A stretch of 54,873 nucleotides of DNA, the filler included, from Catajapyx aquilonaris (taxonomy: Eukaryota), in assembly GCA_000934665.2 (NCBI GenBank). It is 2 parts of 2 records of this genome, joined end to end, with 100 filler letters (N's around TTAATTAATTAA, not from the genome) between each part and the next. Parts side by side here need not be neighbours in the genome. Positions count along the whole stretch, not along the records: positions 1 to 27,406 come from JYFJ02005064.1; 1 more part is not named here. The stretch is one strand, 5' to 3'. Made by a program: the position numbers and the translations under genes. This document shows, piece after piece, positions 415-24,667 of this stretch. The notes beneath the pieces are model-generated. The model was not told the DNA's origin, made no database searches, and saw only the letters and a list, made by a program, of their open reading frames with translations. Each line of letters begins with the position of its first letter. The first letter of the stretch is position 1.

Positions 415-677
415 ATGTTAAGGCCCTCTTAGGGAGGAAGGGGAGGTTCCCAAGGGACGGCGCTGCGCTGTGCTGTAGTCATTTGTGACATTCATAAACA
501 CCAAACATTTCATCCTGGCCCTGGGCAGAGTAGGGAGTGCAATTCTGCCCCGGAATGTCGGGTGAAAGGCGGAAAAAAGACCGGCGAAGCAGAGGTGACT
601 GGGAAGGGATTTGAACCCCTAACCTCTCGCTTGGCTGGCCAGTACCATAGCCACTAGACCACCATGCCTCCCTCTCC
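415..677 (-). mobile_element. tRNA-derived SINE
   Basis: Minus strand starts GGAGAGGGAGGCATGGTGGTCTAGTGG (A box) ... GGGGTTCAAATCCC (B box), then a non-tRNA body; 3' end approximate. Confidence 0.7.
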
Positions 678-959: not shown

Positions 960-2461
960 ATGTTTGGGTGGATGTCAAAAAAGGTGATTTCGGTGGAGGA
1001 GAAACAAGCAGAAGACAATGCAAGGAACGAAAAAATATTTTGGGAAGTGTTGAGACCAGTGGCTATCTTGTCAGTGGTTGGAGGAATTGCTCCTTTTCCG
1101 TGGCACAAGAATAAGAATGATCATAAAGGGAAGTGGCGCAGACGGTGGCCAACAATGGTTCATTTGATATTAATCGCCACTTACTTCACCATCCTCATTA
1201 TTTTCTCCAATAATAATATGACCAGTGAAGCCATAGAAAGAAGCCCCACAGCGAAAATGACCACTGCAGTTATGAATATGGTTTCTGTATTTGGTCCGTG
1301 GATTAACTACATTTTTGCGCAAACAAAAGTAACCCAAATGTGGGAACTGATTCACCGATTTTCAAAGCAGAACGTTGCTAGTCACAGGAGCATATTGAAG
1401 AAGTATGCGGTGCTCATGATTGTTTCGTGCGCTCTCTTTCCATTGTTGGAAATGTCCGACGCTATAGTTAGTTTTGCGAGTGCAGGAATATTATTTGAGC
1501 CGTATTGGTCGCTATTGATATTTATATTATATCACAGTTTCTTTTTGCTTCACGTGATTCCTGCGCAATTAATGTTTTTGGCACTGATTCTGCGGTCACG
1601 ACTCGAAGATTTCAACGAAAAAATTGTACAAACATGCAACATTTTGCGCACATGCACTAAAGATCAACAAGATGAAAACGACATAATTAAGCGGACAAGC
1701 TATTCAGCAGACCTGTTTCACGAATTGGGAGTCTTGGTTGACATGATGGATAGTGTTTCCGGCTTACTCATTCTAACTTTCTTCCTGATATGCTTTATTT
1801 GGATGACAAGCAGTATCTATTATGTTATTTTGCCAACACCCGATCCCCCCATTGTGGATGCCATACAGATGATGGGAATTTCTGTCATGGCAGCATCTGT
1901 GGCTGCTTTCTCCATTATTTTTGGATCGATTCAACGACAGGTACTAGAAAATACCTTTAAAGGCGCCCTGCATATAACTACTGTAGGCCTATAATTATGC
2001 AATGTTTTACTATTTTCAGAGCACGAGATCCCTGCCTGATCTAATAAACACTAATCGTCGTATAGTCAATCCAACTATCAAGGCAGACGTAAGTGATTTT
2101 TTGAGCATTACATAGGCTTCAGTCATGGTCGACTTTTTTCTCATTATGCATAAGTTCTATTATAATCTTACAGATAGAATCACTAATCGTGAAGATGTCT
2201 GGTCCTCCCATGGAGATAACTGCAGCCAGTTACTTCACGGTCAACCGTGGCCTCCTGACCTCCGTGAGTTGTATTTGTACCTTGACAAGGCCCATAATTT
2301 ACCAATATATTGAATTCACTCTACAGGTGGTGGGAGCTGTAACTACATACCTCATAGTACTTGCTCAGTTCAAAGGAGCTGAAAAGGCGGAGGACATTGT
2401 GACCACAACCGCTGACCTAACAAGCGGTGTTACTGTGATGACTCCAGCTGAAGCAAAATAG
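960..2461 (+). CDS. Gustatory receptor, subfamily A, intact (~424 aa); exons 960-1940, 2020-2088, 2174-2263, 2327-2461
   Basis: Multi-TM hydrophobic exon 1; three phase-0 GT-AG introns in the C-terminal region; ITAASYFTVNRGLLTS and TYLIVLAQF match the GR TYxxxxxQF signature. Confidence 0.9.
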
Positions 2462-3238
2462 AGCAGGAATCAGATTTCATTTATTAAATTCGAATGTTTT
2501 TTTCATCAGTGAAAATAATTGACCTCTTCATCTTAAAAAAATGACCTACGCCTGGCTATAGTCAAATATGCAGAATCTTTACGGGACACAAAAATTACTG
2601 GACAAAATATTGTAGGTATAACGTCTCCGGATCTCCTGTGGTACGGAACTGTCAATATTGGCTACTCGCAACAAAATAAAATGTTATCCTGACTGTTATG
2701 AGCCACACAAGAGTCTTTGTTGCATGACGGGTTGCGGTTCATTCAGGATGATTGTTGCCAACAATCACTAATAATCCGATCAGTGCAGGAGGGCCAACTA
2801 GTACTGCTTCAATGAAGGTGTAGCATCATTTCTCAGTATCGATTGGTCAATCTCCAACACGCAAGAGGTGAGCATAGTGTCCTCAAACAATACTGTCACT
2901 ATTGGCTTCATCACTAATAACTGATAAATTCACTGTTTTTTTCTAGCAACCAGTGTCAAGAACAACATCATTGCGTTGCTCAATTTTTAAAGCACAGAGG
3001 GAGTCACGAACCTTCAATCCATGGGAACTGTTTGGGTTACAACATAAGCCTAATTTCAGAGTCGCAGACCACAGGGAATATGGGTCACGCCATAGCAACA
3101 TAGTGTGCACGTCATTCGATAGACACCAAAAAAGTAACAGGAACTGAAATATCAGTCCCATGCACGAGTCCTTATTGGAACAACCGTCTTCGCTCGGAGG
3201 TCCTCATAGTATTTCAGTGGACAGATACAATATTTTTT

Positions 3239-4228
3239 ATGGGTGTAGTAGCCATGTTTGGAGGAATGTCGACAAAGGTGATTTCGGTTCAGCAGGCGGA
3301 ACGCTCAGAAGACAATGGAGAAAAGAGAGATGAATTCTGGGAAGTGTTGAGACCAGTGGCCTTATTGTCAGTGGTCGGAGGAATCGCTCCTTGCCCGTGG
3401 CCAAAGAACAAGGTCGGTCTTAGAGGAAAGTGGTGCAGACGATGGCCAACAATGGTGCATTTGATATTATTTGCCATATACACCACCAGACGCCACCGTC
3501 ATCAGTCTTCATCCCCCTAGTCACTGGACAGTGATGAGTGATGACACAGAGTAAAGCCCCACAGTGAAAATAACAGTTTTAATTATGCATGGATTCCCAC
3601 TAGTCGCTATTGCATCCTCGGTGGTCGCTTTGACTATCAACTGTTCAACGACAGGTATATGCTCTACTACAGTATTACATAATACAAGGGATTATTTCGC
3701 TATTCTATTGTCGTCCTTTCAGAGCACCCGGTCCTTGCCTGACCTCATCCAAGCCAATCGCAATCGTAGGATAGTCAATCCAACCATCGAGGCAGACGTA
3801 AGTCACCTCACCAGAATTACGTAATTCTTAACGACGCGACGGCTGTCCAATAAAGACCTCACACTGTACCGCGCTACATGCAGTAACGCAATTATTATTG
3901 GATTAAAATATCATTTCAGATCGATTCGATGATCCAGAAGATCGACTGGTTCTCCCAGGGAGATAACAGCGGCAAATTACTTCACAGTCAATCGTGGCCT
4001 GCTGACCTCTGTAAGTTGTGTTGTGTAACTTCCTGAAGATCATAATATTGAACAGTGATATTCATTTACTCCTCAGGCGGTGGGAGCTGTAACCACTTAC
4101 CTTGTACTTGCTCAATTCAAAGGGGCTGATTGGCTGAAAAGGTCGAAGATGTTGTGACGACACCAGTTGCCCTAACAAGCAGTGTTACCCCTGGTGTTAC
4201 TACGATGACGTCGTCTGAGGGAATATAG
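3239..4228 (+). pseudogene. GR subfamily A pseudogene
   Basis: N-terminus paralogous to the GR at 960 (FWEVLRPVALLSVVGGIAP...RRWPTMVHLIL); most of exon 1 deleted; exon 3 (3920-4010) is 91 nt (frameshift); last exon reads TTYLVLAQF. Confidence 0.85.
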
Positions 4229-4740
4229 AGCTGGAAATATTGTAGGCATACTTGGCAGTGTTCAAGTATGATTGCGTCGGATCAGGATCAATTTTTTTTG
4301 AAATTATGACAATGGACTATCCCTATAGTGCTACAGGCAACATTTCCGACACGTTTGAAAGCACTGACTGGTGAAAATGGTATCTCTCACCTCTGAATGG
4401 AATCCCTACTGATACCATCCTACACTGGAAGCAGCTTTCCCTGGAGGTCACCAAAAAGTGATATGATTTCTATTTTACACTAGTTGGTCGCTGCGGCGAG
4501 TTAAAAGTACAGCAGACTCTTAGGACTGGGACATGTGTACACGAAAATGCTACCAAACAACGCAGACCACACTGGACCAGGTCCAGACAGAAGTAGCCTG
4601 AGGTGAACAGCACCAAACCCTTTAATTGTAAGTAGTATTTGTGCAATGGGAATACAATGGATACAGACATCACAACGCATATAACACAAGTTCTATGAAT
4701 GGAATATATTACTTTCTATTACGAGGTTTCGATGTTATTA

Positions 4741-6537
4741 TTATTCTGGATTGCATTTTGCATATTTTTTTGCATAATATATAACTTCACCAATGAACAA
4801 GAACATACCACAACCCCAACAACAGGTGGCAAGAAAAATCATCACACCTCTTAGTTGTTCGAACTTCAAAGCCATTGAGTGCTGGTAAGATCTATCCAAC
4901 TTCCTCGCTTCCTTGATTCCTATCAGATGGCATGTATACTCCAAGTACGTGTCATAATAAGCCATAAGTCCTGAAACGATGTAATGATATGCCATTCTAT
5001 CAAGAATTGGACCCAATTTGCTGTGTTTATCCAAAATGAATCCAACTAACACCAATATACTAGCTTCTTTTGCGATGGTCAATGGCATATTTCCTGCCCT
5101 GTCCACAAATTGCGTCGTCATTGCAACCAGTATGTCCGCTGGAGCTATGCAGGCGTAATTCTCGCCTATTGATTTGCGTAAACATGAGGTGAAGTCGCGT
5201 TGATCAATCATGTCTCTTGCAATAGGTTTAAAGTATTCCAAATCATTGTCGGAGAAAACACCTGCTATGTAAGGCTTAAACGATGTAATACTTCCCCACT
5301 GCCATTGTTTACGCCTGTTATTGAGTTCCTGATACGAGGTGGGCAAATCCTCCTGCAGTGGAGATGCCAAGAATCCGAAGTACAAGGCTTCGTACCCGAT
5401 GATGATGACCAGGGAATAGATCCACCAGAAGGAGATGAAGAGTCTGGAGGGGTCACCTCGGGGGATGGTGTTGGGGTTTTCCTCGATCAGGGTGGAAAAC
5501 AGGTATCTGGCCGAGTAGAGGAACAGGGAATAGGACGGACCCTTGTCTGGAAAAGGGTTGCGGAAAGTGCTCTCTATTCTTAGAAGGGCGAAAAGGACAA
5601 AGCTGCCTGCCAAAGTGGCCAAGAATATCATAACCCACATATCTGGAGTGTAAGGCATCAAGACAGAATTCCACGAGTAACTTGGTCTTGAGGTTCTGGT
5701 GGTAAACGTCACCTGCGTATAGTAGACAGGTAATATTACCTGCACAACAGAACTTATCAAGGTTAAGGTTGTGATGCCAATCTCCGCCCTTCGACGGATA
5801 ATGTCACCAGTTTGACCGGAGTAATTACCATCAGGCAATACAATCTCAGGAATCTCACCGTCATCAAGTTGGAACGCATAAAAACCCCAATCAAAATTTA
5901 GGATATCACTAGTTAAAAGAAGGAAATTAAAAGTTCCAAACATTGGCAAGAAATTTTCCAACGAGTACTGAAACTCTTCCTTGGACAAGTCAAGCGCGGT
6001 CGTGCCGTTAATTACCTTACCGTGAAGATTGGTAGAATAATCCGAGAACAATTCCGGTAAAATGCCGCCCCGAGTATATAGAGCAACATGCACCACTTTG
6101 GGGTTACCACGATCGCAATAATGACAGTTCGCCATCACCTTGAGCGAGCTGGAGTCCTGGTCGAACTGGATCCCGACCTGAAAGAGCATGAGTTGGGCGA
6201 TGGGATGCATCAAGACTGTGTCCAGACCTCCGTCCCTGGGCCAGAAGAGGAACCTGTCCCTTCCGGTGTCCATGAGGTGAAGAGTGGCCGCGTGGACCAC
6301 CAGAGGAGACAAGGTGTCCAGTGTCCCGAAGGCGAAGAGGAAGGTGGCGCAGGGGTCCAGTCTCCTGGCCTCCGNCAGGAGACACCCGTCCCCTCTCTCC
6401 CGATGGACGTCACTCACCAAGGATGACACCAGTTCCTCTTCCTCCGACCCAACAGATGGAGAGGACCTGACCTGGACTTGACCAGATGTGACCCAGGCCA
6501 AGACGCACAGACACACTGCAACCACTTCTCTCTCCAT
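4741..6537 (-). CDS. Divergent intronless ionotropic receptor (IR, variant iGluR), 598 aa
   Basis: Signal peptide; S1 region DGNYSGQTGDIIRRRAEIG; PYTPDMW before M1; SRLFISFWWIYSLVIIIGYEALYFGFLASP at M3; LKFEQLRGVM before M4; canonical S1 Arg not evident; one N at 6376. Confidence 0.88.
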   Translation of the reverse strand: MEREVVAVCLCVLAWVTSGQVQVRSSPSVGSEEEELVSSLVSDVHRERGDGCLLXEARRLDPCATFLFAFGTLDTLSPLVVHAATLHLMDTGRDRFLFWPRDGGLDTVLMHPIAQLMLFQVGIQFDQDSSSLKVMANCHYCDRGNPKVVHVALYTRGGILPELFSDYSTNLHGKVINGTTALDLSKEEFQYSLENFLPMFGTFNFLLLTSDILNFDWGFYAFQLDDGEIPEIVLPDGNYSGQTGDIIRRRAEIGITTLTLISSVVQVILPVYYTQVTFTTRTSRPSYSWNSVLMPYTPDMWVMIFLATLAGSFVLFALLRIESTFRNPFPDKGPSYSLFLYSARYLFSTLIEENPNTIPRGDPSRLFISFWWIYSLVIIIGYEALYFGFLASPLQEDLPTSYQELNNRRKQWQWGSITSFKPYIAGVFSDNDLEYFKPIARDMIDQRDFTSCLRKSIGENYACIAPADILVAMTTQFVDRAGNMPLTIAKEASILVLVGFILDKHSKLGPILDRMAYHYIVSGLMAYYDTYLEYTCHLIGIKEARKLDRSYQHSMALKFEQLRGVMIFLATCCWGCGMFLFIGEVIYYAKKYAKCNPE

Positions 6538-7279
6538 GGCTAGACTGATCCCCTCCTATTGATTCCCATAGTTTTTATATCAATTGCCCGAAACATTTCG
6601 CTGTCAATATATTTTGCCATCCTTGCCAATCCACATCGAACTCATTCAGAAATCTTATTTGGACAAATACACACGTTGCCTGCCCTTTCCTGTGCTCCGA
6701 AACTAATTCCCACGAACAGGGTCGTATTAAGATGCAATGTTACGGATTTTCAGGTTGCAGAATATTAAATTATGTGATGCAAGATGAGAGATTGTTATTC
6801 CCGACTATGTGTGAGTTAAAATTGCTGAGATTGACAGGATAATGATGTTTTCCTATCCGGCTTTTTCTGCCAAGAAATTGCTCACTTAACCTACATATAC
6901 GTCACATAGGATAAATCTTTCATACGTGCACTACGGAACAGTGCAGTTAAAATGTCTCCAAACTACCTCGCTTGTCACGCACTCTAGTTTGCATAACCTA
7001 GAACCCAGAAACAGGGAGTGTTTTACAGCCACTTTCTGGCCTCTTTTCTCTCCCTCCAAGTAATGTTTGTGCTTATGCACAAGGACCCACAAATGCCTTG
7101 CTTGGCAATGCGTTTAAGCCTAAGGATTATTTTTATAGTTATACACTTCGAACCTATTATGCAACAAGAACTCCGATGAACATGCAACACAGGTTTATTC
7201 CCGTGAGACAAGCATCAATAAATTCTCTCTTATATTTGTTCCTTATATGAGAGGTGAGCTGCTGGTGAAAAGGGAGACA

Positions 7280-8150
7280 TATGGAAACACCGTAGTCTGA
7301 AGGGAATACGTGTCACGCTATAGCAACTCGTGTGTATCTCACTCTATAATATCCAAGGCAAACACGAATCAAGAAAATAAATCCCATGTGAACATTTCAG
7401 ACTTCAGTTACTCAATGGGACAGTTCAGTGGAAGTGGAGTCAATTATATTATTGGCTCGTGTTTTCAGAAGAGAAGGTTTATAAATAGTGCAAAAGCCAT
7501 GTTTGGGTAGATGTCAAAAAAGGTGATTTCTGTGGAGGGGAAACAAGAAGAAGGCAATGCAAGAGAGGAAGATTCGAGAGGGAAGTGGTACAGACTGTGG
7601 ACGGTGGCCACGAATGGTGCATTATTTTGATGTAATACGCAACTTACCTCACCAACCTCTTTATTTCCCCCCATAATTTGACTAATGAAGCAGTGGAAAG
7701 AAGCCACAGCGAAAAATGACCACTGCAGTTATGAATATCGTTTCTGTACTTTGTCCGTAGATTAACTACATTTTTGCACATTTTAGAGCATTACATAATT
7801 TTATAGGCTTCAGTCAAAGAAAGGCTGTTAACTTTTTTCTCATTATATTATGCATAAGGTTAGAGGTGGTTGCAGTTGTAACCACATACTACCTCATAGT
7901 ACTTGTTCAGTTCAAAGGAGCTGAAAAGGTGGAGGACATTGTGACCACAACCGTTGACCTAACAAGCGGTGTTACGGTGCTGACTCCAGATAAGGAAATA
8001 TAGAGCAGGAATCAGAATTCATTTATTAAATTAGAATGTTTTTTTTCCATCAGTGATGATATACCTCTTGATCTTAAAAATGACCTACGACTGGCTGGTC
8101 AAAGATGCAGAATCTTTACGGGACATAAAAATCACTGGACAAAACATCGT
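7280..8150 (+). pseudogene. Degenerate duplicate of the GR at 960 with its 5' and 3' flanks
   Basis: 7280-7470 matches about 759-955; ATG at 7499 followed by TTT GGG TAG (W to stop); large deletions; last exon remnant YLIVLVQFKGAEKVEDIVTTT at about 7890-8003; 3' flank matches 2461-2610. Confidence 0.85.
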
Positions 8151-8157
8151 AGCTGCA

Positions 8158-8626
8158 ATGGGTGTAGTAGCCATGTTTGGAGGAACGTCGACAAAGGTGA
8201 TTTCGGTTCAGCAGGGGAAACCCCTCTGGTTGCCAATCCAAGCATCAAGCCTCACGTAAGTGTTCCTGCTGTATTACTTATATCGTATAGTATCAATAAC
8301 AAAAAATTTCACCATTTGTATCAGATTGAAGCCCTGCTCCAGAAGATGACAGGTCCTCCCATTGTGATTACTGCCGGTGGATACTTTTCCATCAACCGCG
8401 GCCTCTTGACCTCGGTATGTTGTCATTATGTCTTCAATGTTAGTATAATGTACCCTTGTACGCACAAGAAGAGAAAAGTTACTGCTTGAATCAATGATTC
8501 ACAAATCACTAATTGACATGCCAATTTTCCTTTAACACTTTTTCTCTATTTTCTCCAAAGATGGCAGGATTTGCGACTACGTGCCTCATTGTCCTGGCTC
8601 AATTCAAGGCCTATGAAGAAGCATAA
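8158..8626 (+). pseudogene. Chimeric GR remnant: A-type N-terminus fused to B-type C-terminal exons
   Basis: 8158-8215 matches 3239-3297 (MGVVAMFGG.STKVISVQQ); followed by the end of a B-type exon 2, exon 3 at 8325-8414 and exon 4 at 8561-8626 (MAGFATTCLIVLAQFKAYEEA*). Confidence 0.8.
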
Positions 8627-9060
8627 TTGTGCTGGTGGACTTAATTGGCAGAGTCGAGGAAAGAATGTCCACAGATATGATTGGGACATGGTTTTCTTCT
8701 CTTTATTATTTTTTACTTAACCTACATGGTGTCATACAAGAAGGCTGATCTTTCCTAATAATAATTGACATTCTTCAATCACCAGGTAATGACGTAACCC
8801 TTAACCTTGTCATGTAGTCATTATGAAACTTGGAATATCCTATTATCAATGTATCTTCATTTTAACTCTTATTTACTGACTTGCTGCTTATCGGTGGCAC
8901 TTGTCTCTACAGAAAACCAAGCTCGCTCTTCTTATACCCTCCTAAATTTTGAAATCCTTTGGATTTTATAATTATGCGTGACATATAGTGTTGTGAAAAC
9001 ATCACCTCTGCTGCTAATTTTCATGTTAGCAGGGTCAAAATACAAGCCAAAAGAGCGATT

Positions 9061-9316
9061 TTCCGAAGCCGCAACACCTGCATCCAGTCGCGGGTGGCGG
9101 GTCGCCGGTCCCAACTGGCCGGTCGCGGGTCGTCGCGACTGACATCAGTGAAATGTTAATGGTTGATTTAGCTTGATTCATAAATTGCTACATACAATAG
9201 ATTTGGAAGCGTGTGAGGTCAACTTCTCCTTGCTCGCGCCACCATAGAGCGCTCTACAGTAGCAGCTACCAGGGACCTGCGACCCGCGACCGGCTGCAGG
9301 TGTTGTGGCTTCGGAA
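9061..9316. mobile_element. MITE with about 40-bp terminal inverted repeats
   Basis: TTCCGAAGCCGCAACACCTGCATCCAGTCGCGGGT at left versus ACCCGCGACCGGCTGCAGGTGTTGTGGCTTCGGAA at right; superfamily not assignable. Confidence 0.7.
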
Positions 9317-9399
9317 TATTTCATTTAGTTTGTATTTTGCCGTGAAAATTAGATGTAAAAATGAGGCTTGCCCCACACTATAGGCCAAGCAGAATTTGT

Positions 9400-9843
9400 T
9401 ATCTATTTATTTTACCCCGTGATATGCCTGCATGGGCCCTGTTGGGGGGTGGTACACCACCATCCATTTTCTTGTATTTTTCTTTCTTTACTCCGGTGCA
9501 AGGGGACAGGATAGGGATAATGATGCGGTGACACTGGTGCAGGTGCAATGTCTCAAGTTGGGGGTCGTGTGCAGTCCCCCAGTGGGTCAGGTTGCAAGAC
9601 AACCCTCCAGGGTCCGGGTCAGAAATCCCCCACCGTCACCGCACCTCCTCATGGACGGGACAAGGAAAGGAAAGGAAGGAATCGGCTGTGGCCTATTATT
9701 TAGGAAGCAACCCCGGAATTCTCGTGGGTGGATCGTGGGAAACCACAGAAAACCACGGTTAGGATTGCCGGACCCGGGACTCGAACCCAGGACCTCCCGA
9801 TTAGCAGTCGAACACCTTATCCACTCCACCAAACTGCTTCGGT
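9400..9843 (-). mobile_element. tRNA-derived SINE
   Basis: A box TGGTGGAGTGG, B box GGTTCGAGTCCC, then body GGTTTTCTGTGGTTTCCC...TAGGCCACAGCCGATTCCTTCC of a type common in arthropod SINEs; 3' end approximate. Confidence 0.75.
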
Positions 9844-10011
9844 TGTTACTGTATACTGTAAGAGTGTAAGGGACGAGTAATAAACTTTCTCCAAAACTGG
9901 ACTATTTATGTCACTACTGCTCTATTGAAAGTGTAGTCTTAGGCATAGCAGAATTGGTGGATCGGAAGTCAAAAGAAAATAAAAGAGCGCATTCGTAATC
10001 CAAAAGACATA

Positions 10012-10539
10012 CAGGGTGTAAATAAATTCGGGGGACAAACTTGTAGGGGTAATAGAGGGGACCAAGACAAACATATTTGACATAGGAACCCGTGTCCGGA
10101 AACGCCATCTAGAGGGGGTTCATAGACAAGGAACGGGTGCGCTCAGACGAGTCACGCAGGAGGCGCTAACGAGCAGACCGTTTAGTTGCTAGGTGGCGCG
10201 CGGATTGTACACAACTTTGCAATTCGCCATAAATTGGCAACAACAGAGTTGTTGTTTATTATCTGTCCGCTACCTAGCATGCTGACTTTAGTTGTTAGGT
10301 GGTTCTGTTGTTGCCAGGTTATGGCAAATTACGAAGTTGTGTACAATCCGCGTGCCACCTAGCAACTAAACGGCCCGCTCGTTAGCGCCTCCCGCGTGAC
10401 GCGTCTGAGCGCACCCGTTCCTTGTCTATGAACCCCCTCTAGATGGCGTTTCCGGACACGGGTTCCTAGGTCAAATATGTTTGTCTTGGTCCCCTAAATT
10501 ATCCCTACAAGTTTGTCCCCCGAATTCATTTACACCCTG
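10012..10539. mobile_element. Tc1/mariner-type foldback MITE, about 235-bp TIRs
   Basis: CAGGGTGTAAAT...ATTTACACCCTG ends; long near-perfect inverted arms; TA on the left flank, right TA not preserved. Confidence 0.85.
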
Positions 10540-10546
10540 CGCATCA

Positions 10547-10694
10547 CAAGGGGGTAATCACTTCGGTACTCCGGTGTACACCTGGGAGTGGTACTCCCTG
10601 GTACTCCTCAGGCACCTCACTCTTTATTACTCCGTGGTACTCCTTGAATTTGGTACTCCAGTGTACACTTTTCAGTCGAGTGATTACCCCCTTG
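10547..10694. mobile_element. 148-bp MITE with 8-bp TSD (P- or hAT-type)
   Basis: TIR CAAGGGGGTAATCACT / AGTGATTACCCCCTTG; GCGCATCA duplicated at 10539-10546 and 10695-10702; internal GGTACTCC repeats. Confidence 0.85.
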
Positions 10695-12079
10695 GCGCAT
10701 CAGGTAAAAGATCATGACATGTGTGCCGTAACTGGTGTTAATGATATTCACTAAGGCACTTAATTCGTAAATAGAGATCAACTGAAGATCTAGTGTTCAT
10801 ATTTATTTCGTTACTGTTTTGCTGCTCCAAAGTAGATGCAAGGATAAATTTTCATATTCGTCCACTGAAATCACTCTTGCCGACATTCCCCCAACTATGA
10901 ATTGGCAATAATTGCCCGACTCCTTTTATATGCAAAATATATGCAATGTCTCCAAAGTCGTTTGAATATTATGAACCACTTCTTACGAAACTATTCAAAG
11001 CTAAATATTATTGTCCATGAGAGTGTGTAGCCGATGTGCTCCAATTAGGGACTCCGATGCGTAACTGTCGTATCGATGTTTGATATCCGTTGGGATAACC
11101 TAAGACGACATCATTAATATTATGCCAGTGAATAACACAGCTTCAGTTGTCACCTTGTGACTCGTTCATTACAGAGACACAGTGAAAATTTATTGTAAAT
11201 GAAGTCTAGTTGTTTCTCTGTTGCTATGGAGCACTTCTGCATTGACTTTACATCATGATCGAGCCATGTTCTCATGTACAGTACGGTATACACATTAATA
11301 ATTAATAATTAATTTGTTTAAATGTGTGTTAACACTTCTACGCGGCTGCCGTGGGCGTGTAGTCTAGTTATGTACATTGACCTCGTCGCGTCATGTCGTA
11401 GGGCGTCTTGAAGGGCGCCTGGAGACATCTTCTCAAAGGTCACTCGGACATGTACCTTCCATCCTTCTTCCTCGACATGACCAACTTTTTACACTACTTC
11501 AGAGCCTACCCATGGCTGAAGGGTCAAGCTGACCTTTTGGATTGGAGATAATATTCCCATTGTACGTAAGTTGACGTAAGTACATTCTATAATTATTTCA
11601 ACTAAATATCACATACGCAATCGACATGGCGGAAGAGATTGGAACCTTATTCATCCCTCACACTTACACAGGAAGGGCTGCAGTCACACACCTGCAGATA
11701 ATCCATATTTAAAACATCGAATAACACGTTCCTTTCGGTGCTAGATGCAAACATGCATGCTTCAATATCTGGATCTGGTATGAAGACTTCAATGCAATGA
11801 GTAATTATTATCTTCGTCCTCCATGACAGTTTCTACCATTTATTTATAACACGATCACGAAACGCTGACTGACAAGTCACGAGATATCGTATTCACACAA
11901 TAGCACTTGATGAGTAAATAGTCCCACTCCCAAGATGTAAACTATCATTTATTTTGTACCCTGGCCGCTTGGTATTAGGGTGCGGTTCTTTTGAAGGCAA
12001 CAATCGATGAGAACTTATTCTTCTGTTGGGGACAAAATAATGTATTGGCAGTGGTGCTTCAAAAAGGAGTGAGGCAACA

Positions 12080-14134: not shown

Positions 14135-14468
14135 GGGAGGCGGAGTGGTGCTGCGGTAACGTACGCGCCCACGGATGTTAAGGTACCGGGTTCGATCCCA
14201 ACCCGGGGACACCCCCTTCATCACGTGCAGAGTTCAAGGGTCACCTCTGGCTTCGTCTCGGGTGGTATATCCACAGACTAAACCACCCGGGGGAGTTCAC
14301 TAAAAATGGCCACATTAAGACATTGCACTGCACCTTGCACATCCCCTCCTGTCATCCTGCCCGTGGGCCCGGGCGTTACGTATAAAGGCTCCAATGTACT
14401 TGGCATAATAAATAAAGGTCCGTGCTACATACCTCTGATGAGGTCAGCACTACCCCGGATTATTATTA
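14135..14468 (+). mobile_element. tRNA-derived SINE (family shared with 46229 and 54471)
   Basis: GGGAGGCGGAGTGGTGCTGCGGTAACG...GGGTTCGATCCC head; (TTA)n tail; 16-bp TSD TTATAGCACTAACACG at 14119-14134 and 14469-14484; empty paralogous site near 22915. Confidence 0.9.
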
Positions 14469-14718
14469 TTATAGCACTAACACGAAACAATGTATTTAGA
14501 CTGACAAGTTAGGAGAAGTATCATTATCGTTTTTCGTTAGAATAGTAATAGTGCAACAGCTTGCTATGGGTTAATAGCCACGCACTTAAGCTATAAACTA
14601 TCCAATGAACCTTGTCCGAGTGACAGGGTGCGGTTCTTGTGGAAGCAATAATCAATGAGAACTTATTCTGTTGGGGACAAATGTTGGCAGTTGTGCTTCA
14701 AAAGTGAGTGAAGCAACA

Positions 14719-16169
14719 ATGTTTGGCAGAAGATCTACCGTTGTTTGTGTTAAGTCTGGAGACAATGGCCAATATGACGCCTTTTGGACCGCGTTCAGAC
14801 CATTGGGAATCTTGGCCACCGTTGGAGGAATCGCTCCTTGTCCTTGGCCCAGGGAAAATCAGAGTTGGAAGTGGTACCAACGGTGGCCTGCAATGGTGCA
14901 CTTCACTATTCTGATCCTGTCTGTCACTACATACATCTACTTCCCACCGTTGACATGGAAAGCAATTGCCAAATTCAATGCTACACGACGGTCACAAGTG
15001 ATGATTCTTCTGATCGTAACAAGTGCTACTCCATGGATAAGTTATATTTGGATCCAAGGAAGAGTGAGGCGAGTGTGGAAGCTGCTTCATCGCTTCTATC
15101 AGCTTGATCTCAGCAGGCATGAGAAACCCCTTCACAAGCGTTCACTGATATTGGTGACTGTCAGCGTCCTTCTGCCTTTATTGGAAGTAATTAACTTAAT
15201 TATCAAAAGTTTTGCGTTTTCTAGCCCATTCGAGCTTAGGAACATTTTGAATTTATTCTTCATGTGGCACTGCTACTTTTTGTCTCATTTGATCCCCACT
15301 CAGGTGGCATTTCTGACGATTGTTGTCTGGGAATTGTTGCACGAGTTAAGTGAGAAAATTATTAATACGTGCGATTCATTATTTTTGTCCTCATCAGGAG
15401 AGAGGCAGAAAGCGAATGAAATTTTTGGCGAAAATATAGAGTTGCTTTTTCGTAAATATTACGAACTGTGCTTCGTAGTGGAAAACATGGACAGCGTTTA
15501 TGGAATGTGCATTTTGCCTCATTACTTTATGAATGCAGTGCGGGTAATATGCTCGATTTCTGAGTTGCTGTTGGTGCCATTTGTTAGTGTGTTGGACACA
15601 GCTGCATTAATTACCATCACCGGAGCCACACTGATATCAATAATTGCATTTACTTTGATCCTGGGATCCATACCATCGCAAGTATGTCATCATTTTGGCG
15701 CAGGTCATAGTGCAGTTATTAATAATTCATATTTTCAGAGCACACGGTCTCTGACTCATTTGTTAAGTGCAACCCCTCTGGTCACTAATCCAAACATCAA
15801 GGCGTATGTAAGTGTTCCCTTTGCTTTGCTAATGTCAATACCAACTAATTTCATATTTTCTATCAGACTGAAGCACTGGTCCAGAAGATGACAGGTCCTC
15901 CCATAGGGCTTACTGCCGGTGGATACTTTTCCATCAACCGCGGCCTCTTGACCTCAGTAAGTTGTCAATATATCTTCAATATTCTAGTACTGTGTTGTAC
16001 CCGAGATGAGAAAAGTTACAGCATGAATGATTGACAAATCAATGATACATACAATGACATGCCAATAATCCTTTAACACTTTTCTCTGTCATTTTCTCCA
16101 TAGATGGCAGGATTTGCGACTACGTGCCTCATTGTTCTGGCTCAATTCAAGGCCTCTGAAGAACCATAA
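14719..16169 (+). CDS. Gustatory receptor, subfamily B, intact (~395 aa); exons 14719-15681, 15739-15807, 15867-15956, 16104-16169
   Basis: Open multi-TM exon 1; three phase-0 introns at the same positions as in the GR at 960; LTAGGYFSINRGLLTS; ends TTCLIVLAQFKASEEP*. Confidence 0.88.
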
Positions 16170-16807
16170 TGGTGCTGGTGGAGTTTATTGGCAGAGTCGA
16201 GGAAAGAATGTACAATGACCTAATTAAGACCTGCTTTTCTTCTCTTTATTATTTTTTTCTCTACCTAGGCCTACATGGTGTCGTGCAAAAGGCTGATCTT
16301 TCCTAATAATGATTGATATTCTTCAAGCACCAGGTAATGATGTACCACCTAACCTTGTCATGTAGTCATTATGTGACTAAGGATATCCTATATTATATTT
16401 ATGACCAATGTATTTCCCTATTCACTCTTATTTACTGCCATGCCGCTTATCGGTGACACTGGTCACTACTGACTGTGAGAGGTAGGCCTATTGCATTATA
16501 AAAATCTTTTATGATGATGTATTAGCCACGCACTATGTCCCATTGCAAGCCTATTGATGTGAGAATTTAATAAAGATGGAGCTCTAGGTGTCAGGTGCAC
16601 TCCTCCCAGCCAAGTATTTGATACTCTACACCTAAAAGCTCTCCTCACACCGTGTAAATTTTTCTTTCACCGTATTCCAACTGCTTCCAACTCTGATCAC
16701 CAGTTGGCCTTCTCTTCACTCTCATCCCGTGCCTCCCGCTGTGGAGACAGCCAAAACTACTGGGTGGAAAGGCCACAATATTGGCTCAAGTGGACTCTCC
16801 AGCCTCA

Positions 16808-17075
16808 CTATGCTCTTGTTACGTTAGGTGACTCTGAAATAGAAAAATCATCCACCTTTTCTGCTCCTTTGAATTGAGCCAGTACTATGAGGTATGTGGT
16901 CACAGATCCGGCAACCTGAAGGGGGAATCAAAATTAATGTCAGTGGATTAATGGCAACTATACCCTATTTAGCAGCGCAACTTACAGACGTCAAGAGGCT
17001 TCGATTAACCGTGAAGTAACTGGCCGCAGTTATCTCCATGGGAGAACCAGTCAATTTCTGGATCAGCGAATCGAT
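16808..17075 (-). pseudogene. Orphan last two exons of an A-type GR (16986-17075, 16808-16915)
   Basis: IDSLIQKLTGSPMEITAASYFTVNRSLLTS and VAGSVTTYLIVLAQFKGAEKVDDFSISESPNVTRA*; splice sites intact; no GR exon 1 found upstream. Confidence 0.8.
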
Positions 17076-18022
17076 CTGAATTAATGAAGTGCAAGTCAAC
17101 GTAATTGTTGTAATTTTTGATTTTGTCATTAGTATTTGATCAAGGTGCACTCTACTGAACATCTAAAAACATTACTCTAGAACACTTACGTATGCTTTTG
17201 TGACCGGGGCAATTCCAGTAAAGGAAGTGAAACGGAGGTCACAGAAAGCGACAACGAGCATTTTCTCAGTCTTTTCTTGTGACTTTGAACATTTTGATTT
17301 GAAAATCCTATGCGAATGAATAATAGGCCCCAGTTGAGGTCTCCTGCGTATATATTCCAGAGAGACAGTTACAAATATTGGATGTGTATATTTCACGTGT
17401 TTCTTTGTTGCTCTGGAGCACGTTTTCACATTTTATGTGCCATGAAAAATTATTACATATTACACTAAAGCTATGTTATCATAATACTGTTTAGTTGGAC
17501 TAATTAGCGCCAGCAGATTACGCACTGGATATATTACCAAATTGTTCCAGATTCGTGGGTAACTTTTTGATAACCTACTACTTATAGTGTGCATTATTTC
17601 TACTGGCTTATGTAGTGTGCATAGTGCTTTATATCTGATGGCTTATCGATGCAGCTTTTCATACATCCGTGAGTGACGATTAGTGTACATGTCGCTGCTT
17701 CCTGGAGTGTGCTCATATCGGGTTAGGCCTGCATTTGTATTTGCATTTGTTTCTACTGATATGACACTTAAAGTAATAATAATAATAAAGCTATACACCG
17801 TAGGCAGATGGGGACTAGGATGGAAGGAAACGTGTGCAGACTAATTAACACGAAGATAAATATTTTAAATCATTGAATTTACTTTCACTTCCCTAGAAAT
17901 ACAAGACAAAAATTCTGGATATACATACTTTACGTATTTGACAATATTGAAAATACATAATTATTGCAAACTCTCCGTGTCTCGATCCTTCATTATTACC
18001 GATGTACGGAGTAATCTGGTAA

Positions 18023-18895
18023 TTAATACGATCCGCATTCCTGTAACACAACAAATACGAGGAGCATTAATGATGCATTACGTACCTACGTTAAAAAGTT
18101 TCATTCAATTGAAAACAATAGTTTCACAAGGATTCTATACATCACCTGCATGAATTTTGTCTTGACGCATGCTAGAGGTTTTAAGAAATCACATCTCTCC
18201 AGAGATTCACCTTCACCTGCAGGACAGTAATGGAACAATGAGAACGGGAATGTGTTCCAACATATTGAAGTGTGTGTAGGGTACACGGGTATTGCAATGC
18301 TAACTAACCTGTTTCTACGCAGTGGGTGAACGTTTCGACGAAATACTCGTTGGTCTCTTCGTATCCTTCTTCGGGCAGAAAGAAATCCGCCACCTCCTGT
18401 GGTTTCACGTTTAAATCATCATCAACCTATACACCGACCACAATTTAAAATAATTACTCCCAAATAAAACCGTAATGATCATTATTTTGTTCGCTGATTC
18501 CACACTGTAGCTACATTGCACCTTACATACCAGGTCTAGAAAGTGGCACAGGCATATTACACGGTCACACTGAAAATAAAAGATGCATATTGTATCATAA
18601 TTAGTACGTTACTTATTCAGTTTGAAGAAATTATTGTGAGTTAAAAGTGAGCATGTTTTACACACCACTTCAGATTCCCCGCGAATTCCTTTAAAGTCGC
18701 AGGCCGTAAACGCTGCTTCTAGCCCTTCTTTTGCGCTTTCTTTGAGCTCCTTCGGCTGCCGGCAGCGAGCAGCAGGCTGAGAAACAGAAAGAAATGTGAC
18801 AAAACATTTCTTAACAATCACTGTAATAGACTCACCTCATCTTGGGCTGCTGCAAATGCTGACAAGAGAAGGACAAAGGTGGCTGCGAAGATCAT
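18023..18895 (-). CDS. Secreted Cys-rich protein, odorant-binding-protein-like (Plus-C-like), ~138 aa; exons 18836-18895, 18666-18776, 18531-18569, 18309-18426, 18146-18216, 18023-18040
   Basis: Phase-compatible GT-AG exons give MIFAATFVLLLSAFAAAQDE-PAARCRQPKELKESAKEGLEAAFTACDFKGIRGESEV-CDRVICLCHFLDL-VDDDLNVKPQEVADFFLPEEGYEETNEYFVETFTHCVETG-EGESLERCDFLKPLACVKTKFMQ-ECGSY*; signal peptide on its own exon; 9 Cys. Confidence 0.72.
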
Positions 18896-19189
18896 TGTTG
18901 CTCTCTATTGTTACAGAATGGGAATGAAGTGCATTGCACAATATCGCGTACTTATGTAGTGTTAATTATCTCGGGGGATATGGCTGCAGCCTTTCCTATG
19001 CACACATGTGTGAGTGACGATTAGTGACTATGCTTCCTCAAATGTGCTGATATAGGGTGAGGCACGTACGGTATTGATATTCCAATTAAAAAGTGATGTA
19101 CCAGGCGTACTACTGTCGGTTATAGCAGACTCGGTTATAACAGACTGTAACCCTCGAGTTTTCTTGCATGCCCCCTGATCCGATTTTAA

Positions 19190-19656
19190 CCCTTAACCTC
19201 GTAGGTGGGTGAAACACCTTTAACTACGTAGGTGGAGCCTGAAAGGCTCCAACGGTATATTTAAATTTCTGCTTATCAACTAAATTGTTATATTGGACTT
19301 TTCACATACAGAAAGTGCAGTTCAGATCATTAGGCTTCCGAGAACGTAAAAATCACACGCTGAGTCAGCATATTCCGACAGGGAAAAATTCTTCATTAAA
19401 AGGTTACATCATGCTTGAGCCGCTCAGTCTTCACCTGCATAGGTAGAGCCAGTATAGAGTCCAGGAGGGACCTGTTCCCCGTTACGAATTTTTTTAAACC
19501 AAACAATAGGGACTTAAAAAAAAATTCCTTTTCATGCTTAGGCAGGTTTGTCTGACGAAGTCACGGAAGGACAGGGGAAAATAAAATTCGATGAAAAAGT
19601 TACATGCGTTTAAATAGTGCTTGGAGCCTCTCAGGCTCCACCTACGTAGTTAAGGG
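19190..19656. mobile_element. Non-autonomous piggyBac-type element
   Basis: TTAA at both flanks; CCCTTAAC...GTTAAGGG ends; inverted CTACGTAGGTGGAGCCTGA.AGGCTCCAA subterminal repeats. Confidence 0.8.
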
Positions 19657-21343
19657 TTAAAGACGTATCCACGTCAAAAGAGGATTGTAATGTATTATGG
19701 CAATTATGGGCTGCCTAAGCACATTTCCAAGCTTGTATAACTTGCCTTTTTATGACTTGCAATGAAACACAGATTTTGAACGAATCAGTAACACGCAGTG
19801 TACTGCAGCTTTAGCACTTGATCCTTTCTTCCTGCCATAAGAGGAAACAAACTCCCCCGAGAGACATATCGCCATATGCCAGTAGGTAGCATAACAGATA
19901 AACCGAATTGCATTATAACTAATGGACTGTGACATACGGTAGGCCAACATTTAAAATGTTATTGTTGCCTTCACTTCTTCTCGTACATTTTTAATGCCAT
20001 CATTAAGCCTATAAGGTCATAAAAGTACATAAACAACATAGTGTTGCAACTACATTCGAGTAGGGGATATACTTTGATATAGATGAGAATCAAGTGTCTG
20101 TAATTTAACAAATTTTTAAATTTTTAAAATGAGAAAAATCTACCGTACATTTTTGTTTTGAATTTCTCCAATTTGGCTACCAAAATATTATTTATTTGAT
20201 GAAAATTATTTCAATGTGATATTATTAATATAATTTTAAGATATTCACAAGTTACAGGGGACTTGAAACCTTTGAAATACCTATACTTGTTTGATGTACA
20301 GTACCTTGACTGTCACTCCCATTGACAGTTCACGTATGGCAAAACATCTTATTTTCAAAATTAGCTGAAACCAAGGCTGAAACATGTCAAGCAGTTTCAA
20401 CAAGCCAAGAAGCAAGACACTTCCATGCAAGAACCATCTCACATTCCACAATCTATATAAAGTTTGTCAAGAAACAAATACCTGTGCGAAGGTACAGTAA
20501 ATGATGCTGACCCCCATAATTTTCAAAGGTCTATCAACTATGATGTTACTTTATTTTGTAACTTCTATATGTGGATAGTGTTTTGCAACATAATATTATC
20601 AAAGCTCTTCTGCAACTTGCGCTGATTATGTAAGTGCCATCTTGTATTCTAAGTAGCATTTGCAGCACAAATTAGTAATTCGCTGATTTATTATTCTTGA
20701 CTTGATTCTTGATTTGAAGCCATCAGTGGCATATATAATACAAATTGTCACCAAACAAATAATTAATCAAACACGGCTGCAACCCAGACAGAATGACGAT
20801 GACTAATAATAATTATCTGCTGGCCGAATTTACCTCCATGACAGTTTCTATACCATTTATTTATAACACGATCACGAAACGCTGCATTAAGACTGACAAG
20901 TCACGAGATATCGTATTCACACAATAGCTCTTGATGAGTAAATAGTCCCACTCCCAAGCTGTAAACAACCATTTGTACCCTGGCCGCTTGGTAGGGTGCG
21001 GTTCTTTTGAAGGCAACAATCGATGAGAACTTATGCTTCTGTTGGGGACAAATGTATTGGCAGTGGTGCTGCAAAAAGGAGTGAGGCAACAATGTTTGGC
21101 AAAAGATCTACCACAGTTTGCGTTGAAAGTGCCAATCAGTCTGGAGACAATGAGCAATATGCAGCCTTTTGGACCGCGTTCAGACCATTGGCAATCTTGG
21201 CCACCTTTGGAGGAATCGCTCCTTGTCCTTGGCCCAGGGAAAAGCAGAGTTGGAAGTGGTACCAACGGTGGCCAACAATGGTGCACTTCACTATTCTGAT
21301 CCTGTCTGTGATCACATATATGTACTGTACATAATTATGTACT

Positions 21344-21425
<82 letters not shown>
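21344..21425. repeat. Compound (GAC)n(GAT)n microsatellite
   Basis: Directly visible trinucleotide runs. Confidence 0.95.
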
Positions 21426-21428
<3 letters not shown>

Positions 21429-21544
21429 TTTGGAAATAATTTTTATTACAAGCCAGGCCGACTGTACACGTTGCGTACATAAATGATACTCTAGAATAAT
21501 TCCGAATTAAATAATGAACCAATCCATAGGACATTTATTACTGT

Positions 21545-21774
21545 ACAATTGTAAGTATTTGTGCAATTATGATACAATGCATACAAACAGTGCAATGAAT
21601 ATTACATAAGTTACATAATTTGAATAGATTTTCTTTTTACGAGGTTTCGATGTTGTTGTCATTATTCTGTAATACATTTCGCATATTTTTTACACACATA
21701 AGTTCACCAATGAGCAAGAGCATACCACCACCCCAACAACAGGTGGCAAGAAAAATCATCACACCTCTCAGTTG
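21545..21774 (-). pseudogene. 3' fragment (M4 helix, tail and 3' flank) of an IR paralog
   Basis: Reads QLRGVMIFLATCCWGGGMLLLIGE versus QLRGVMIFLATCCWGCGMFLFIGE in the IR at 4741; flank similarity extends to about 4625-4740. Confidence 0.85.
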
Positions 21775-22261
21775 CGTTTGCCTGCCCTTTCGAACTAAGG
21801 AACATGGTGAATTTATTCTTCATGTGGCACTGCTTCTTTTCGTCGCAATTGATCCCCATTAAGGTGGCATTTCTGGCGACTGTTGTCAGGGAACTGTTGA
21901 ACGAATTAAGTGAGGAAATTATTTATATGTGCGACTCATTATTTTTGTCATCAGGAGAGGGGCCAAAAGCGAATGATTTTTTTTTGCAATAATATAGAGT
22001 TGATTTCTCATGAATATTACGAACTATGCTTCGTAGTGGAAAACGTTTATTGTCAGAGAGGTAGGCCTACGAAGTTTGCATTATTAAAAATATGTTATTA
22101 TGTCTCAGCCGCACACTATGAGTGCCCGTAACACGCCTATTGATGTGATATAATTTAATAAACATGGAGCTCTAGGTGTGTCAGGTGTCCTCTTCACAAC
22201 CAAATGTTTATAATACTCTACACGCTCACATGTTTCACGATAGTATTGATCAACATACTAA

Positions 22262-22409
22262 GGGCCAGTTGCACCGGCCTCAGTATAACTTAGAACCTCG
22301 GGTATAGCAAGAATTGCCATAGCAATCATTGTTGACCAACAATGATTGCTACGGCAATTCTTGATATAGCCGAGGTTCTAAGATATACTGAGGTCGGTGC
22401 AACTGGCCC
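22262..22409. mobile_element. PIF/Harbinger (Tourist-like) MITE, almost fully palindromic
   Basis: GGGCCAGTTGCACC...GGTGCAACTGGCCC with TAA TSD; paralogous empty site at about 13825-13845 (CATGCTAAATAATTATTGTG). Confidence 0.9.
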
Positions 22410-23174
22410 TAAATAATTATTGTGCCTTTGCATCATTAATATGTTGTTGACGCGTTGCATGGCTTCGTGCAATTGGCAGTAGGCTTACTATTTTCCACAC
22501 ATACTGTATGCCATCGAAAAAGGATACCTTCCAGCATAGTTTGATTTCTTTTGCGCTGCATCAGTGGAAGTTGTTGAATGTGAAGTAAAATCATGCTAAG
22601 AGTGCAAATAACAACATTTATTGGTAAACAAAAAAATGGTGATTCAACCTCGGGTATACAATAGAGAGGAGAGGTAAATGGACAGCCGGGTAAGGGGAAA
22701 TTAACATCAATCACACCTTGTTGTGGGAAACCAATTCATCCAAAATAAATGGTGCTCAACAACCCTTATTTTTCGCTTCAAGCTGTCAACCAGCCATTGT
22801 GACAGTGTTCTGCTTCATTGCCATTTGCATCATTGCATCTTGTTCATGTGCAAGCATGAGAGTAAGTAATATTATCTTCGTGCTGAAGTTTCATCCGTGA
22901 CAGTTTCTAGCATTTATTTATAACACGACAACGAAACAATGTATTAAGACTGACAAGTTACCAGAAGTATCATTATCGTTTTCCGTTATAATGGCAATAA
23001 TGCAACAGCTTGCGATGGGTAAATAGCCACGCTCTTAAGCTATAAACATACTATCCAATGAACCTGGCCCGCGTGACAGGGTGCGGTTCTTGCGGAAGCA
23101 ACAATCGATGAGAACTTATTCTTCCGACGGGGACATATGTTGGCAGTTGTGCTTCAAAAGGGTGTGAGGCAACA

Positions 23175-24667
23175 ATGTTTGGCAAAAGATCAACCGTCGT
23201 TTGCGTTATGTCTGGAGACAATGAGCAATATGCAGCCTTTTGGACCGCGTTCAGACCATTGACAATCCTGGCCACCTTTGGAGGAATCGCTCCTTGTCCT
23301 TGGCCCAGGGAAAAGCAGAGTTGGAAGTGGTACCAACGGTGGCCAGCAATTGTGCATTTCACTATTCTGATCCTGTCTGTTATTACATACATCTACTTCC
23401 CACCGTTGACATGGAAAGGAGTTGCCAAATTCAGTGCAACACGATGGTCAAAAGTGACCATTCTTCTGATCGTAACAAGTGCTACTCCATGGATAAGTTA
23501 CATTTGGATCCAAGGAAGAGTGAGGAGAGTGTGGAAGCTGCTTCATCGCTTCTCTCAGCTTGATCTCACCAGGCATAAGAAACCCCTTCACAAGCGTTCA
23601 CTGATATTGGTGACTGTCAGCGTCCTTCTGCCTTTATTGGAAGTAATTAACTTAATAATCAAAAGTTTTGCGCTTTCCAGCCCATTCGAGCTTAGGAACA
23701 TTTTGAATTTATTCTTCATGTGGCACTGCTACTTTTTGTCTCATTTGATCCCCACTCAGGTGGCATTTCTGGCGATCGTTGTCTGGGAATTGTTGCACGA
23801 GTTAAGTGAGAAAATGATTAACACGTGCGATTCATTATTTTTGTCCTCGTCAGGAGAGAGACAGAAAGCGAACGAAATTTTTGGCGGAAATATAGAGTTG
23901 CTTTTTCGTAAATATTACGAACTATATGCTTCGTAGTGGAAAACACGGACAGCGTTTATGGAATGTGCATTTTGGCTGCTTACTTTATGAATGCAGTGCG
24001 GGCAATATGCTCGATTTCTGAGTTGCTCTTGGTGCCCTTTGTTAGTGTGTTGGAGACAGCGGCATTAATTACCATCACCGGAGCCACACTGATATCAATA
24101 ATTGCATTTACTTTGATCCTGGGATCCATACCATCGCAAGTATGTCATCATTTTTGCGCGGGTCATGGCGCAGTTATTAATCATTCATATTTTCAGAGCA
24201 CACAGTCTCTGACTCATTTGTTAAGTGCAAGTCCTCTGGTCACCAATCCAAACATCAAGCCGTATGTAAGTGTTCCCTCTGCTTTGCTAATATCAATACT
24301 AACTAATTTCATCATTTTCAATCAGACTGAAGCACTGGTCAAGAAGATGACAGGTCCTCCCCTTGGGATTACTGCCGGGGGTTACTTTTCCATCAACCAC
24401 GGCCTCTTGACCTCGGTAAGTTGTCAATATATCTTCAATATTCTAGTATAAGGTACCCTTGTACCCGAGAGGATAAAAGTTACCGCTTGAATCAAATATT
24501 CACAAATCAATGAATACATTCAATGACACATGCCAATTTTCCTTTAACACTTTTCTCCATAGATGGCCGGATTTGCGACTACGTGCCTCATTGTCCTGGC
24601 TCAGTTCAAGGGGTCTCTAATTACCATGATGTTGCTGGTGGAGTTTATTGGCAGAGTCGAGGATTGA
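23175..24667 (+). pseudogene. GR subfamily B, full length but with one 2-nt frameshift; exons 23175-24139, 24197-24265, 24326-24415, 24563-24667
   Basis: TACGAACTATATGCTTC at about 23916 versus TACGAACTGTGCTTC in the intact paralog; all splice sites intact; last exon runs past the paralog's stop. Confidence 0.8.

Follow-up and report, generated by a model that had tools for sequence, protein, structure and literature searches.

We analysed a 54,873-nucleotide stretch of DNA from the dipluran Catajapyx aquilonaris (assembly GCA_000934665.2), hereafter called the window, in which gustatory receptor (GR) genes, an ionotropic receptor (IR) gene and a gene resembling those of odorant-binding proteins (OBPs) are interleaved on one contig. 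The mixture probably represents a young subclade of single-exon IR genes lying among older relict GR genes, brought together by one or a few early juxtapositions and then rearranged by local duplication, inversion and deletion. The contig itself is likely to be a piece of a large region of mixed chemosensory genes that share a neighbourhood of birth and death rather than forming a co-regulated module. We observed that the adjacency of IRs and GRs is clade-specific, that mixed blocks have been duplicated, that some remnants are chimeric, and that the genes include homogenised tracts and mosaic IRs.

Both receptor families are large in this genome (285.6 Mb in 20,583 contigs, whose numbers follow roughly falling size): first-look searches gave 714 and 948 candidates for the two families, of which 111 and 150, respectively, were scored. 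The first-pass annotation of the window had raised the possibility that adjacency follows from such gene numbers alone, and this proved not to be the case. Using hidden Markov models (HMMs) trained on the genes fetched, we annotated stretches of at most 10 kb; the GR HMM, derived from 153 exon-1 open reading frames (ORFs), found a GR in 52/52 GR-centred stretches, which themselves contributed to the HMM. A GR was present in 17 of the 39 stretches around IRs of the window clade (39 of 63 contigs, taken largely by rank, with three short ones skipped), but in 0/40 stretches around other IRs (40 of 98 contigs, hand-picked from the top Pfam matches, with top-scoring multi-exon receptors excluded) and in 0/20 next-numbered, size-matched contigs (Fisher p 6e-7 and 2e-4, respectively). 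Likewise, 33 GR elements were counted in 246 kb of non-IR sequence around window-clade IRs, and none in 285 kb around other IRs or in 180 kb of the next-numbered contigs. Among the matches listed, a GR also occurs on at least 17 of the 63 contigs that carry a close relative of the window IR, compared with 0/98 other-IR contigs and an expectation of 0.7 for size-matched contigs. The four contigs with window-clade IRs that were fetched first all hold a GR (4/4).

The adjacency is concentrated in one part of the IR tree. A GR neighbour was found for 23 of 29 copies in the inner subclade to which the window IR belongs, and for 4 of 24 copies in the surrounding grade, the labels being contig-level for contigs fetched whole. 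When the analysis was centred on GRs, IRs were found in 3/22 stretches around GRs near to those of the window (one of them picked knowing its IR) and in 7/30 stretches around distant GRs.

Duplicated blocks and homogenised tracts

The GRs of the window belong to two subfamilies, A and B, as first annotated, and the intact members of the two are 32% identical (Table 1). Positions 1021-6370 of the window are collinear with positions 4156-1 of contig C4084 at 89-94%, intergenic DNA included. Altogether, C4084 repeats, at 83-94% and in a rearranged order, the GR-A1/GR-pseudogene/IR block of the window, together with GR-B in two copies and a remnant of the OBP; this duplicate has lost the OBP and the GR-A1 copy. 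For the 120 residues compared, its GR copy agrees with CaquGR207. We also considered C4084 as the other allele of the window contig, which is unlikely given the 6-17% difference in DNA, the other gene order, the other pseudogenes and the separate numbering of its GR in PMC13388675. Non-genic DNA is common to other mixed loci as well (C6528/C8054 and C8305/C6528/C7662).

Mixed blocks have thus occasionally been duplicated, and to this extent the co-duplicating receptor-plus-carrier unit of the first-pass annotation was borne out; a stable module was not. Distances between IRs and between their nearest GRs are uncorrelated (Mantel r 0.09, p 0.28, n=15 pairs), also with the converted tracts described below removed, that is, with the IR ligand-binding segments only (r 0.17, p 0.17, n=16). 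The orientation of the 15 pairs varies (9 convergent, 6 same-strand), and fixed GR-IR pairs were rejected on both grounds. Among 32 mixed loci with GR and IR, OBP-like sequence was tallied in only two, namely the window and, as a remnant, C4084; C1417, outside this tally, also holds all three kinds of gene. The median p-distance is 0.31 for the IR ligand domain and 0.67 for the neighbouring GRs. Chimeric remnants occur too. The separate IR fragment of the first annotation is indeed present, not as a locus of its own but fused inside a GR pseudogene, and its junction with that pseudogene shows a 3-base microhomology.

Next, we compared 21 full-length IR paralogs along their coding sequence (CDS). 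In a core block at CDS nucleotides about 180-540 (paralog numbering), third-position identity is 0.90-1.00 and the GC content of third positions (GC3) is 0.74-0.89, while outside the two tracts recognised in these genes the corresponding values are about 0.4-0.75 and about 0.3-0.6. The second tract, in the pore region, has a third-position identity of 0.88-0.97 and a GC3 of up to 0.80 in the inner clade; that of the window IR is 0.88-0.99 identical to inner-clade copies and 0.61-0.70 to outer ones. Genome-wide, 37 of the 40 scored matches to the ~370-bp block (the best 40 of 104 candidates) are full-length at 99-100%. One haplotype of CDS 181-480 is common to 15/21 copies, the others carry private changes, the edges are ragged, and many contigs end within the block or at its edge. 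In a predicted structure of the paralog on C5817 (predicted local distance difference test score, pLDDT, 88), the block would form the core of the single short N-terminal alpha/beta domain (residues about 32-201). The top Foldseek matches of this model are NMDA, AMPA and kainate receptors (E about 1e-21), pointing to an ionotropic glutamate receptor fold.

The segments of these IRs also differ in their histories: distances in S1 and S2 agree (rho 0.87), while those in the signal region agree poorly with either (rho 0.24-0.25). The window IR is a mosaic, resembling C3989 in its upstream flank and S2, while its CDS 1-150 is 100% identical to three other paralogs and 62% to C3989. The copy C1817a likewise combines an inner-clade ligand domain with the upstream flank and signal peptide of the outer-clade C1817b, which lies 10 kb away on the same contig. 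The IR tracts show three of the features by which conversion is recognised, namely near-identity at synonymous sites, GC bias and incongruent segment histories; they show 3/5 of the signatures given for avian gamma-c odorant receptors (ORs) and the GC3 pattern used as a test for fugu protocadherins. Judged by these sequence patterns, the IR block is a product of regional gene conversion, around which 5' ends have been swapped.

Related patterns were seen elsewhere. In the IR pairs L019:3528-5468/L020:3896-5803 (C1817) and L053/L065, flank and signal peptide are 88-93% identical and the ligand domains 56-65%, making them candidate promoter swaps. A distant two-exon IR clade (L077, L079, L081, L082, L084, L086, L093, L095, L099 and L100) has its own near-identical tracts of 200-340 bp, at the 5' end and around the pore. 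Subfamily-A-like GRs have a tract of their own near residues 21-50, with a synonymous third-position identity of 0.84-0.91 compared with about 0.5, and without a rise in GC (GC3 0.45-0.54).

Proposed origin of the mixed neighbourhood

We propose that an ancestral IR was placed within or next to an array of relict GRs, in a single early juxtaposition or a few. IRs and GRs, occasionally with an OBP-like gene, would then have been copied jointly through unequal exchange and joins at microhomologies, most of the copies having died. GC-biased gene conversion may hold the IR N-terminal domain constant, and in the inner subclade the pore too, while the ligand-binding halves drift. The near-identical converted tracts are likely recombination points; exchange at the block may swap 5' ends, and GRs situated between two IR copies would be duplicated or inverted by it. 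The genes would act as independent receptors and a carrier, so that their linkage reflects history and not a fixed unit. A stronger form of this proposal is possible but tentative: the converted 370-bp block may fix the N-terminal (assembly) domain, free the ligand halves and act as a recombination hinge that reshuffles IR promoters and drives duplication and inversion of GRs, such that the concerted evolution of one family would shape the expansion of an unrelated one.

Several observations weigh against inheritance from an early juxtaposition followed by exchange at converted tracts. Since contigs end within the block, no GR duplication has had a breakpoint located there, and a GR was found in only 2/8 further block-bearing IR stretches. 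The boundary of the inner subclade was drawn once the GR labels were known, and the set of other IRs was hand-picked. The p-values reject chance arising from gene number but do not count events, because the samples share ancestry. Mixing is not confined to the window clade, as the IRs in the 7/30 distant-GR stretches are of other clades, and IRs are not significantly enriched around GRs overall (10/52 GR-centred versus 1/20 random stretches, p 0.27). Finally, conversion itself could erase co-phylogeny and make the IRs look young, although removal of the tracts restored no signal.

We also considered the possibility that gene-poor, rearrangement-tolerant chromatin gathers fast-turnover chemosensory families repeatedly and independently, with converted tracts playing no part. 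The neighbourhood does look permissive: several unrelated IR clades lie beside several GR clades (the 7/30 distant-GR stretches), we found no other gene in the 27.4 kb of the contig (0/17 ORFs match Pfam), and single IRs have moved about the genome of Campodea according to Manni et al. (PMC6938034). Such repeated gathering is nonetheless unlikely, given that no GR was found around the 40 other IRs, that IR enrichment around GRs as a whole is not significant, and that mixing is strongest in a single recent subclade, which is what descent from one juxtaposition would give. A selected, co-regulated receptor-plus-carrier module, with IR, GR and OBP-like genes linked by shared enhancers or by expression in the same sensillum, would account for the strong clade-specific adjacency and for the 9/15 IR-GR pairs that lie tail-to-tail within 4 kb. 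It would also suit the OBP-like arrays, which interleave with IRs; a recognisable IR lies near OBP-like genes on 4 of 10 other OBP-like contigs (C1417, C2933, C3801 and C4084), and C10461 also holds an IR. We regard this module as very unlikely, because co-phylogeny is lacking, partners and orientation vary, the GRs on either side of the window IR are both pseudogenes, OBP-like sequence is rare among mixed loci, and the duplicate on C4084 has lost the OBP and the GR-A1 copy.

That two huge families are adjacent by chance, or through an assembly artefact such as chimeric contigs or gap filling that pasted one sequence into the IR copies, is highly improbable. The size of the families (547 GRs are reported in PMC13388675) would favour chance, and many contigs break inside the IR block, where the N of the window IR also lies. 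Against chance, a 10-kb stretch would hold a GR with a probability of at most 2.2%, for which 17/39 gives p about 2e-18 if the stretches are independent, and the mixed order recurs on many separate contigs, which also speaks against an artefact. Moreover, the block copies have private differences and ragged edges, their raised GC3 cannot be explained by gap filling, and contig breaks in the block require real near-identity. An origin by early juxtaposition and local rearrangement is the explanation that we prefer.

Gene content of the window and the OBP-like family

Positions 1-27406 of the window are the entire contig C2899 (JYFJ02005064.1). The first 3000 bases from 27507 are identical to the start of C2900, whose length of 27367 nt matches the remainder. 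Because these two contigs were joined artificially, the genes of the second half are not established as neighbours of the cluster; its housekeeping genes were rejected as a cluster boundary, as they sit on the separate contig C2900. Other stretches of this genome joined likewise may show false adjacencies. Within 1-27406, none of 17 further ORFs of at least 80 aa matches Pfam (opposite-frame ORFs over GR and IR genes excluded; short-exon genes could escape), in agreement with the first impression that no housekeeping gene lies in the cluster.

Table 1. Features of the window, in order of position.
Position	Strand	Feature	Evidence or remark
129..428	-	GR exon-1 remnant, tenth locus	GR HMM E 2.8e-4; no Pfam match
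960..2461	+	Intact relict GR, subfamily A (GR-A1) = CaquGR122	4 exons, 424 aa; PF08395 E 7.8e-15
3254..4222	+	GR pseudogene, subfamily A, exon 1 mostly deleted	tblastn, self-BLAST
4741..6537	-	Single-exon divergent IR	PF00060 E 6.5e-9; one N at 6375
5419..5599	-	Homogenised tract over roughly the M1-pore-M3 region, second of two	Inner subclade only
6139..6537	-	GC-rich homogenised 5' tract of window IR	N-terminal alpha/beta domain; extended here to start codon
7281..8221	+	Heavily deleted copy of 758-3302: GR-A1 pieces and 64 bp of the next GR's start	Self-BLAST 81-95%
8219..8913	+	Subfamily-B GR 3' half, fused to the 7281..8221 remnant	80% to 15771-16472
10012..10539	none	Palindromic element resembling miniature inverted-repeat transposable elements	87% self-inverted (self-BLAST); also present in C4084 and C8054
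12080..13339	+	GR pseudogene, subfamily B	Frameshift in exon 2 (79 nt); terminal exon missing
14719..16169	+	Intact relict GR, subfamily B = CaquGR206	4 exons, 395 aa
16847..17308	-	Subfamily-A GR remnant in inverted orientation: 3' exons, scrap of exon 1	tblastn
18023..18895	-	OBP-like gene, 138 aa, secreted-type	Six-exon model; 8 family-invariant cysteines + one
21092..22047	+	GR pseudogene, subfamily B: two exon-1 pieces parted by microsatellite and IR fragment	Self-BLAST
21547..21774	-	IR 3' end and flank	80% to 4624-4857; inside GR pseudogene 21092-22047
23175..24667	+	Subfamily-B GR, almost complete	Frameshift of 2 nt near 23925
27407..27506	none	N/stop-codon linker between C2899 and C2900	N/TTAATTAATTAA/N; not genomic adjacency

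The first annotation had counted about nine GR loci, only two of them intact, and ascribed them to birth-and-death turnover. Our reannotation agrees: there are nine loci within 960..24667, and a tenth remnant lies before this range. The two intact genes are at 960-2461 and 14719-16169; the other seven in the range are broken by deletions, frameshifts or fusions, so that 8/10 loci are broken overall. Both intact genes have GT-AG introns and no internal stop, with exons of 981/69/90/135 and 963/69/90/66 nt, respectively. The 7tm_7 domain (PF08395) was recognised in GR-A1 and also in the ORF at 23112 (E 1e-8); the ORFs at 14659 and 12041 gave no PF08395 match in the Pfam search. In PMC13388675, the GRs of the bitter supergroup are described as having a long exon 1, an exon 2 of 69-72 bp, an exon 3 of 90 bp, a short last exon and phase-0 introns, and the 547 GRs of C. 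aquilonaris as including 517 relict ones (CaquGR31-547), of which 89 are pseudogenes. Both intact genes fit the relict-GR exon pattern (long exon 1, 69, 90, short last, phase-0 introns) and fall within CaquGR31-547 in the trimmed alignments of the supplement to that paper.

The window IR is intronless and a single ORF, as in divergent IRs, a class that acts together with IR25a, IR8a or IR76b in chemosensory neurons. It had been annotated as complete, which holds for the single-exon open frame with its PF00060 domain but not for its full length, since the N at 6375 replaces 142 nt that are present in the paralog on C5817, and 47 codons are absent. This N is most likely a collapsed assembly gap.

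The OBP-like gene of the first annotation is present and intact in our six-exon model. Among its relatives, 19 of 26 printed candidates passed the score filter, and eight cysteines are invariant in 19/19 of these spliced models. Exon-level searches of the gene gave no direct Pfam link to the insect OBP family PF01395, and a PF01395 search of the genome gave three matches only, all on C485 and none within the OBP-like family. When 63,267 ORFs were searched with a profile of the family, the 3/3 PF01395-positive C485 exons were matched with the cysteines aligned (E 7e-5 to 2e-4), the best match beyond the OBP-like contigs and these exons reaching only E 3.5. An exon-4 profile found no match among representatives or longer proteins (best E among PDB sequences, 0.31), and a C485 exon had no scored database relative, its atlas leads all being under 0.9, some with PF01395. 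The gene thus probably encodes a divergent OBP, as far as cysteine frame and profile matches indicate.

The family occurs mostly in arrays of its own (C5156, C2483, C6264 and C5431), some arrays having IRs of other clades between the genes (C2933, C1417 and C3801). On the 50-kb contig C1417 (L009-L012, L174), distant-clade IRs, at least seven OBP-like genes and four GRs are interleaved. OBP-like exon 4 is protein-identical on C2933 and C2483 (L024:5575-5694 and L026:7549-7668), suggesting a recent duplicate or conversion. Three or more OBP genes positive for PF01395 lie in tandem at C485:68500-77000 (L187) and have a C-terminal extension rich in cysteine.

Among other repeats, self-BLAST gave further inverted-repeat elements at 8970-9396, 19216-19657 and 22261-22410, and a dispersed repeat resembling short interspersed nuclear elements, at 14135-14376 with copies at 46327-46567 and 54472-54691. 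The C2900 part carries, at 27836-33663, a UBX-type gene bearing UBA and UIM domains, a gene for mitochondrial ribosomal L51/S25 and an N-acetylglucosamine-6-sulfatase-like gene that lacks introns over a long stretch, and a PX-domain gene near 48821-50600. The best matches of the sulfatase ORF, at about 50%, are spread across animals and say nothing on lineage.

Comparison with known systems

The GR genes themselves are published, and birth-and-death arrays and regional conversion are known processes. In the titles and abstract openings searched, a coverage outside which subscription papers lie, we found no report of mixed GR/IR/OBP clusters or of gene conversion in IRs; nor did we find there the interleaving of an IR subclade with relict GRs or a link between it and converted tracts, the segment-wise conversion or the eight-cysteine OBP-like family of about 20 or more genes. 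The main text of the relict-GR paper (PMC13388675) does not treat genomic arrangement ('tandem' occurs 0 times and 'cluster' once), and the parts of it covered here contain no IR or OBP annotation.

Insect OBPs are characterised by six helices held by interlocked disulfides, by ligand binding and by expression in sensilla. In the classic members, the spacing between cysteines C2 and C3 is 3. The OBP-like family differs from the insect PF01395 proteins in its eight invariant cysteines and in an equivalent spacing of 4; it resembles them in small size, a signal-peptide-like start and a conserved frame of six or more cysteines (PMC4145409). That 2014 review, in the parts covered, states that no OBP had been found in Diplura.

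Diplura are the sister group of insects and have no ORs (PMC6938034). The way in which dipluran relict GRs and IRs expanded to hundreds of genes is therefore relevant to how insect chemoreception arose. Should the mixing be driven by exchange at converted tracts, full-length alignments would yield distorted receptor trees, and short-read assemblies, whose contigs end within the block, would give too low a count of these genes; nor would unrelated chemosensory families that lie together have to function together.

The closest parallel for the IRs is found in Campodea augens, whose intronless IRs (PMC6938034) are also single-exon and divergent, with arrays on both strands, inversions, segmental duplications and many pseudogenes; the IR section of that paper describes no interleaving with GRs or OBPs, and 'gene conversion' has 0 occurrences in the text covered. 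The same two-family question of GR and IR clustering was addressed in the spider Dysdera silvatica (GALEON, PMC11236287), where the heat map shows separate GR and IR clusters and the parts covered report no clade-specific interleaving. For the homogenised tracts, the nearest likenesses are the avian gamma-c ORs (bioRxiv 10.1101/2025.11.14.688425) and the fugu protocadherins (PMC1852091), in which a near-identical, GC-rich tract of ~300 bp, third positions included, lies beside divergent segments with incongruent histories. The Catajapyx tracts differ from these in belonging to ligand-gated channels, in setting a constant N-terminal domain and pore against variable ligand halves, and in occurring in a clade that is interleaved with an unrelated family.

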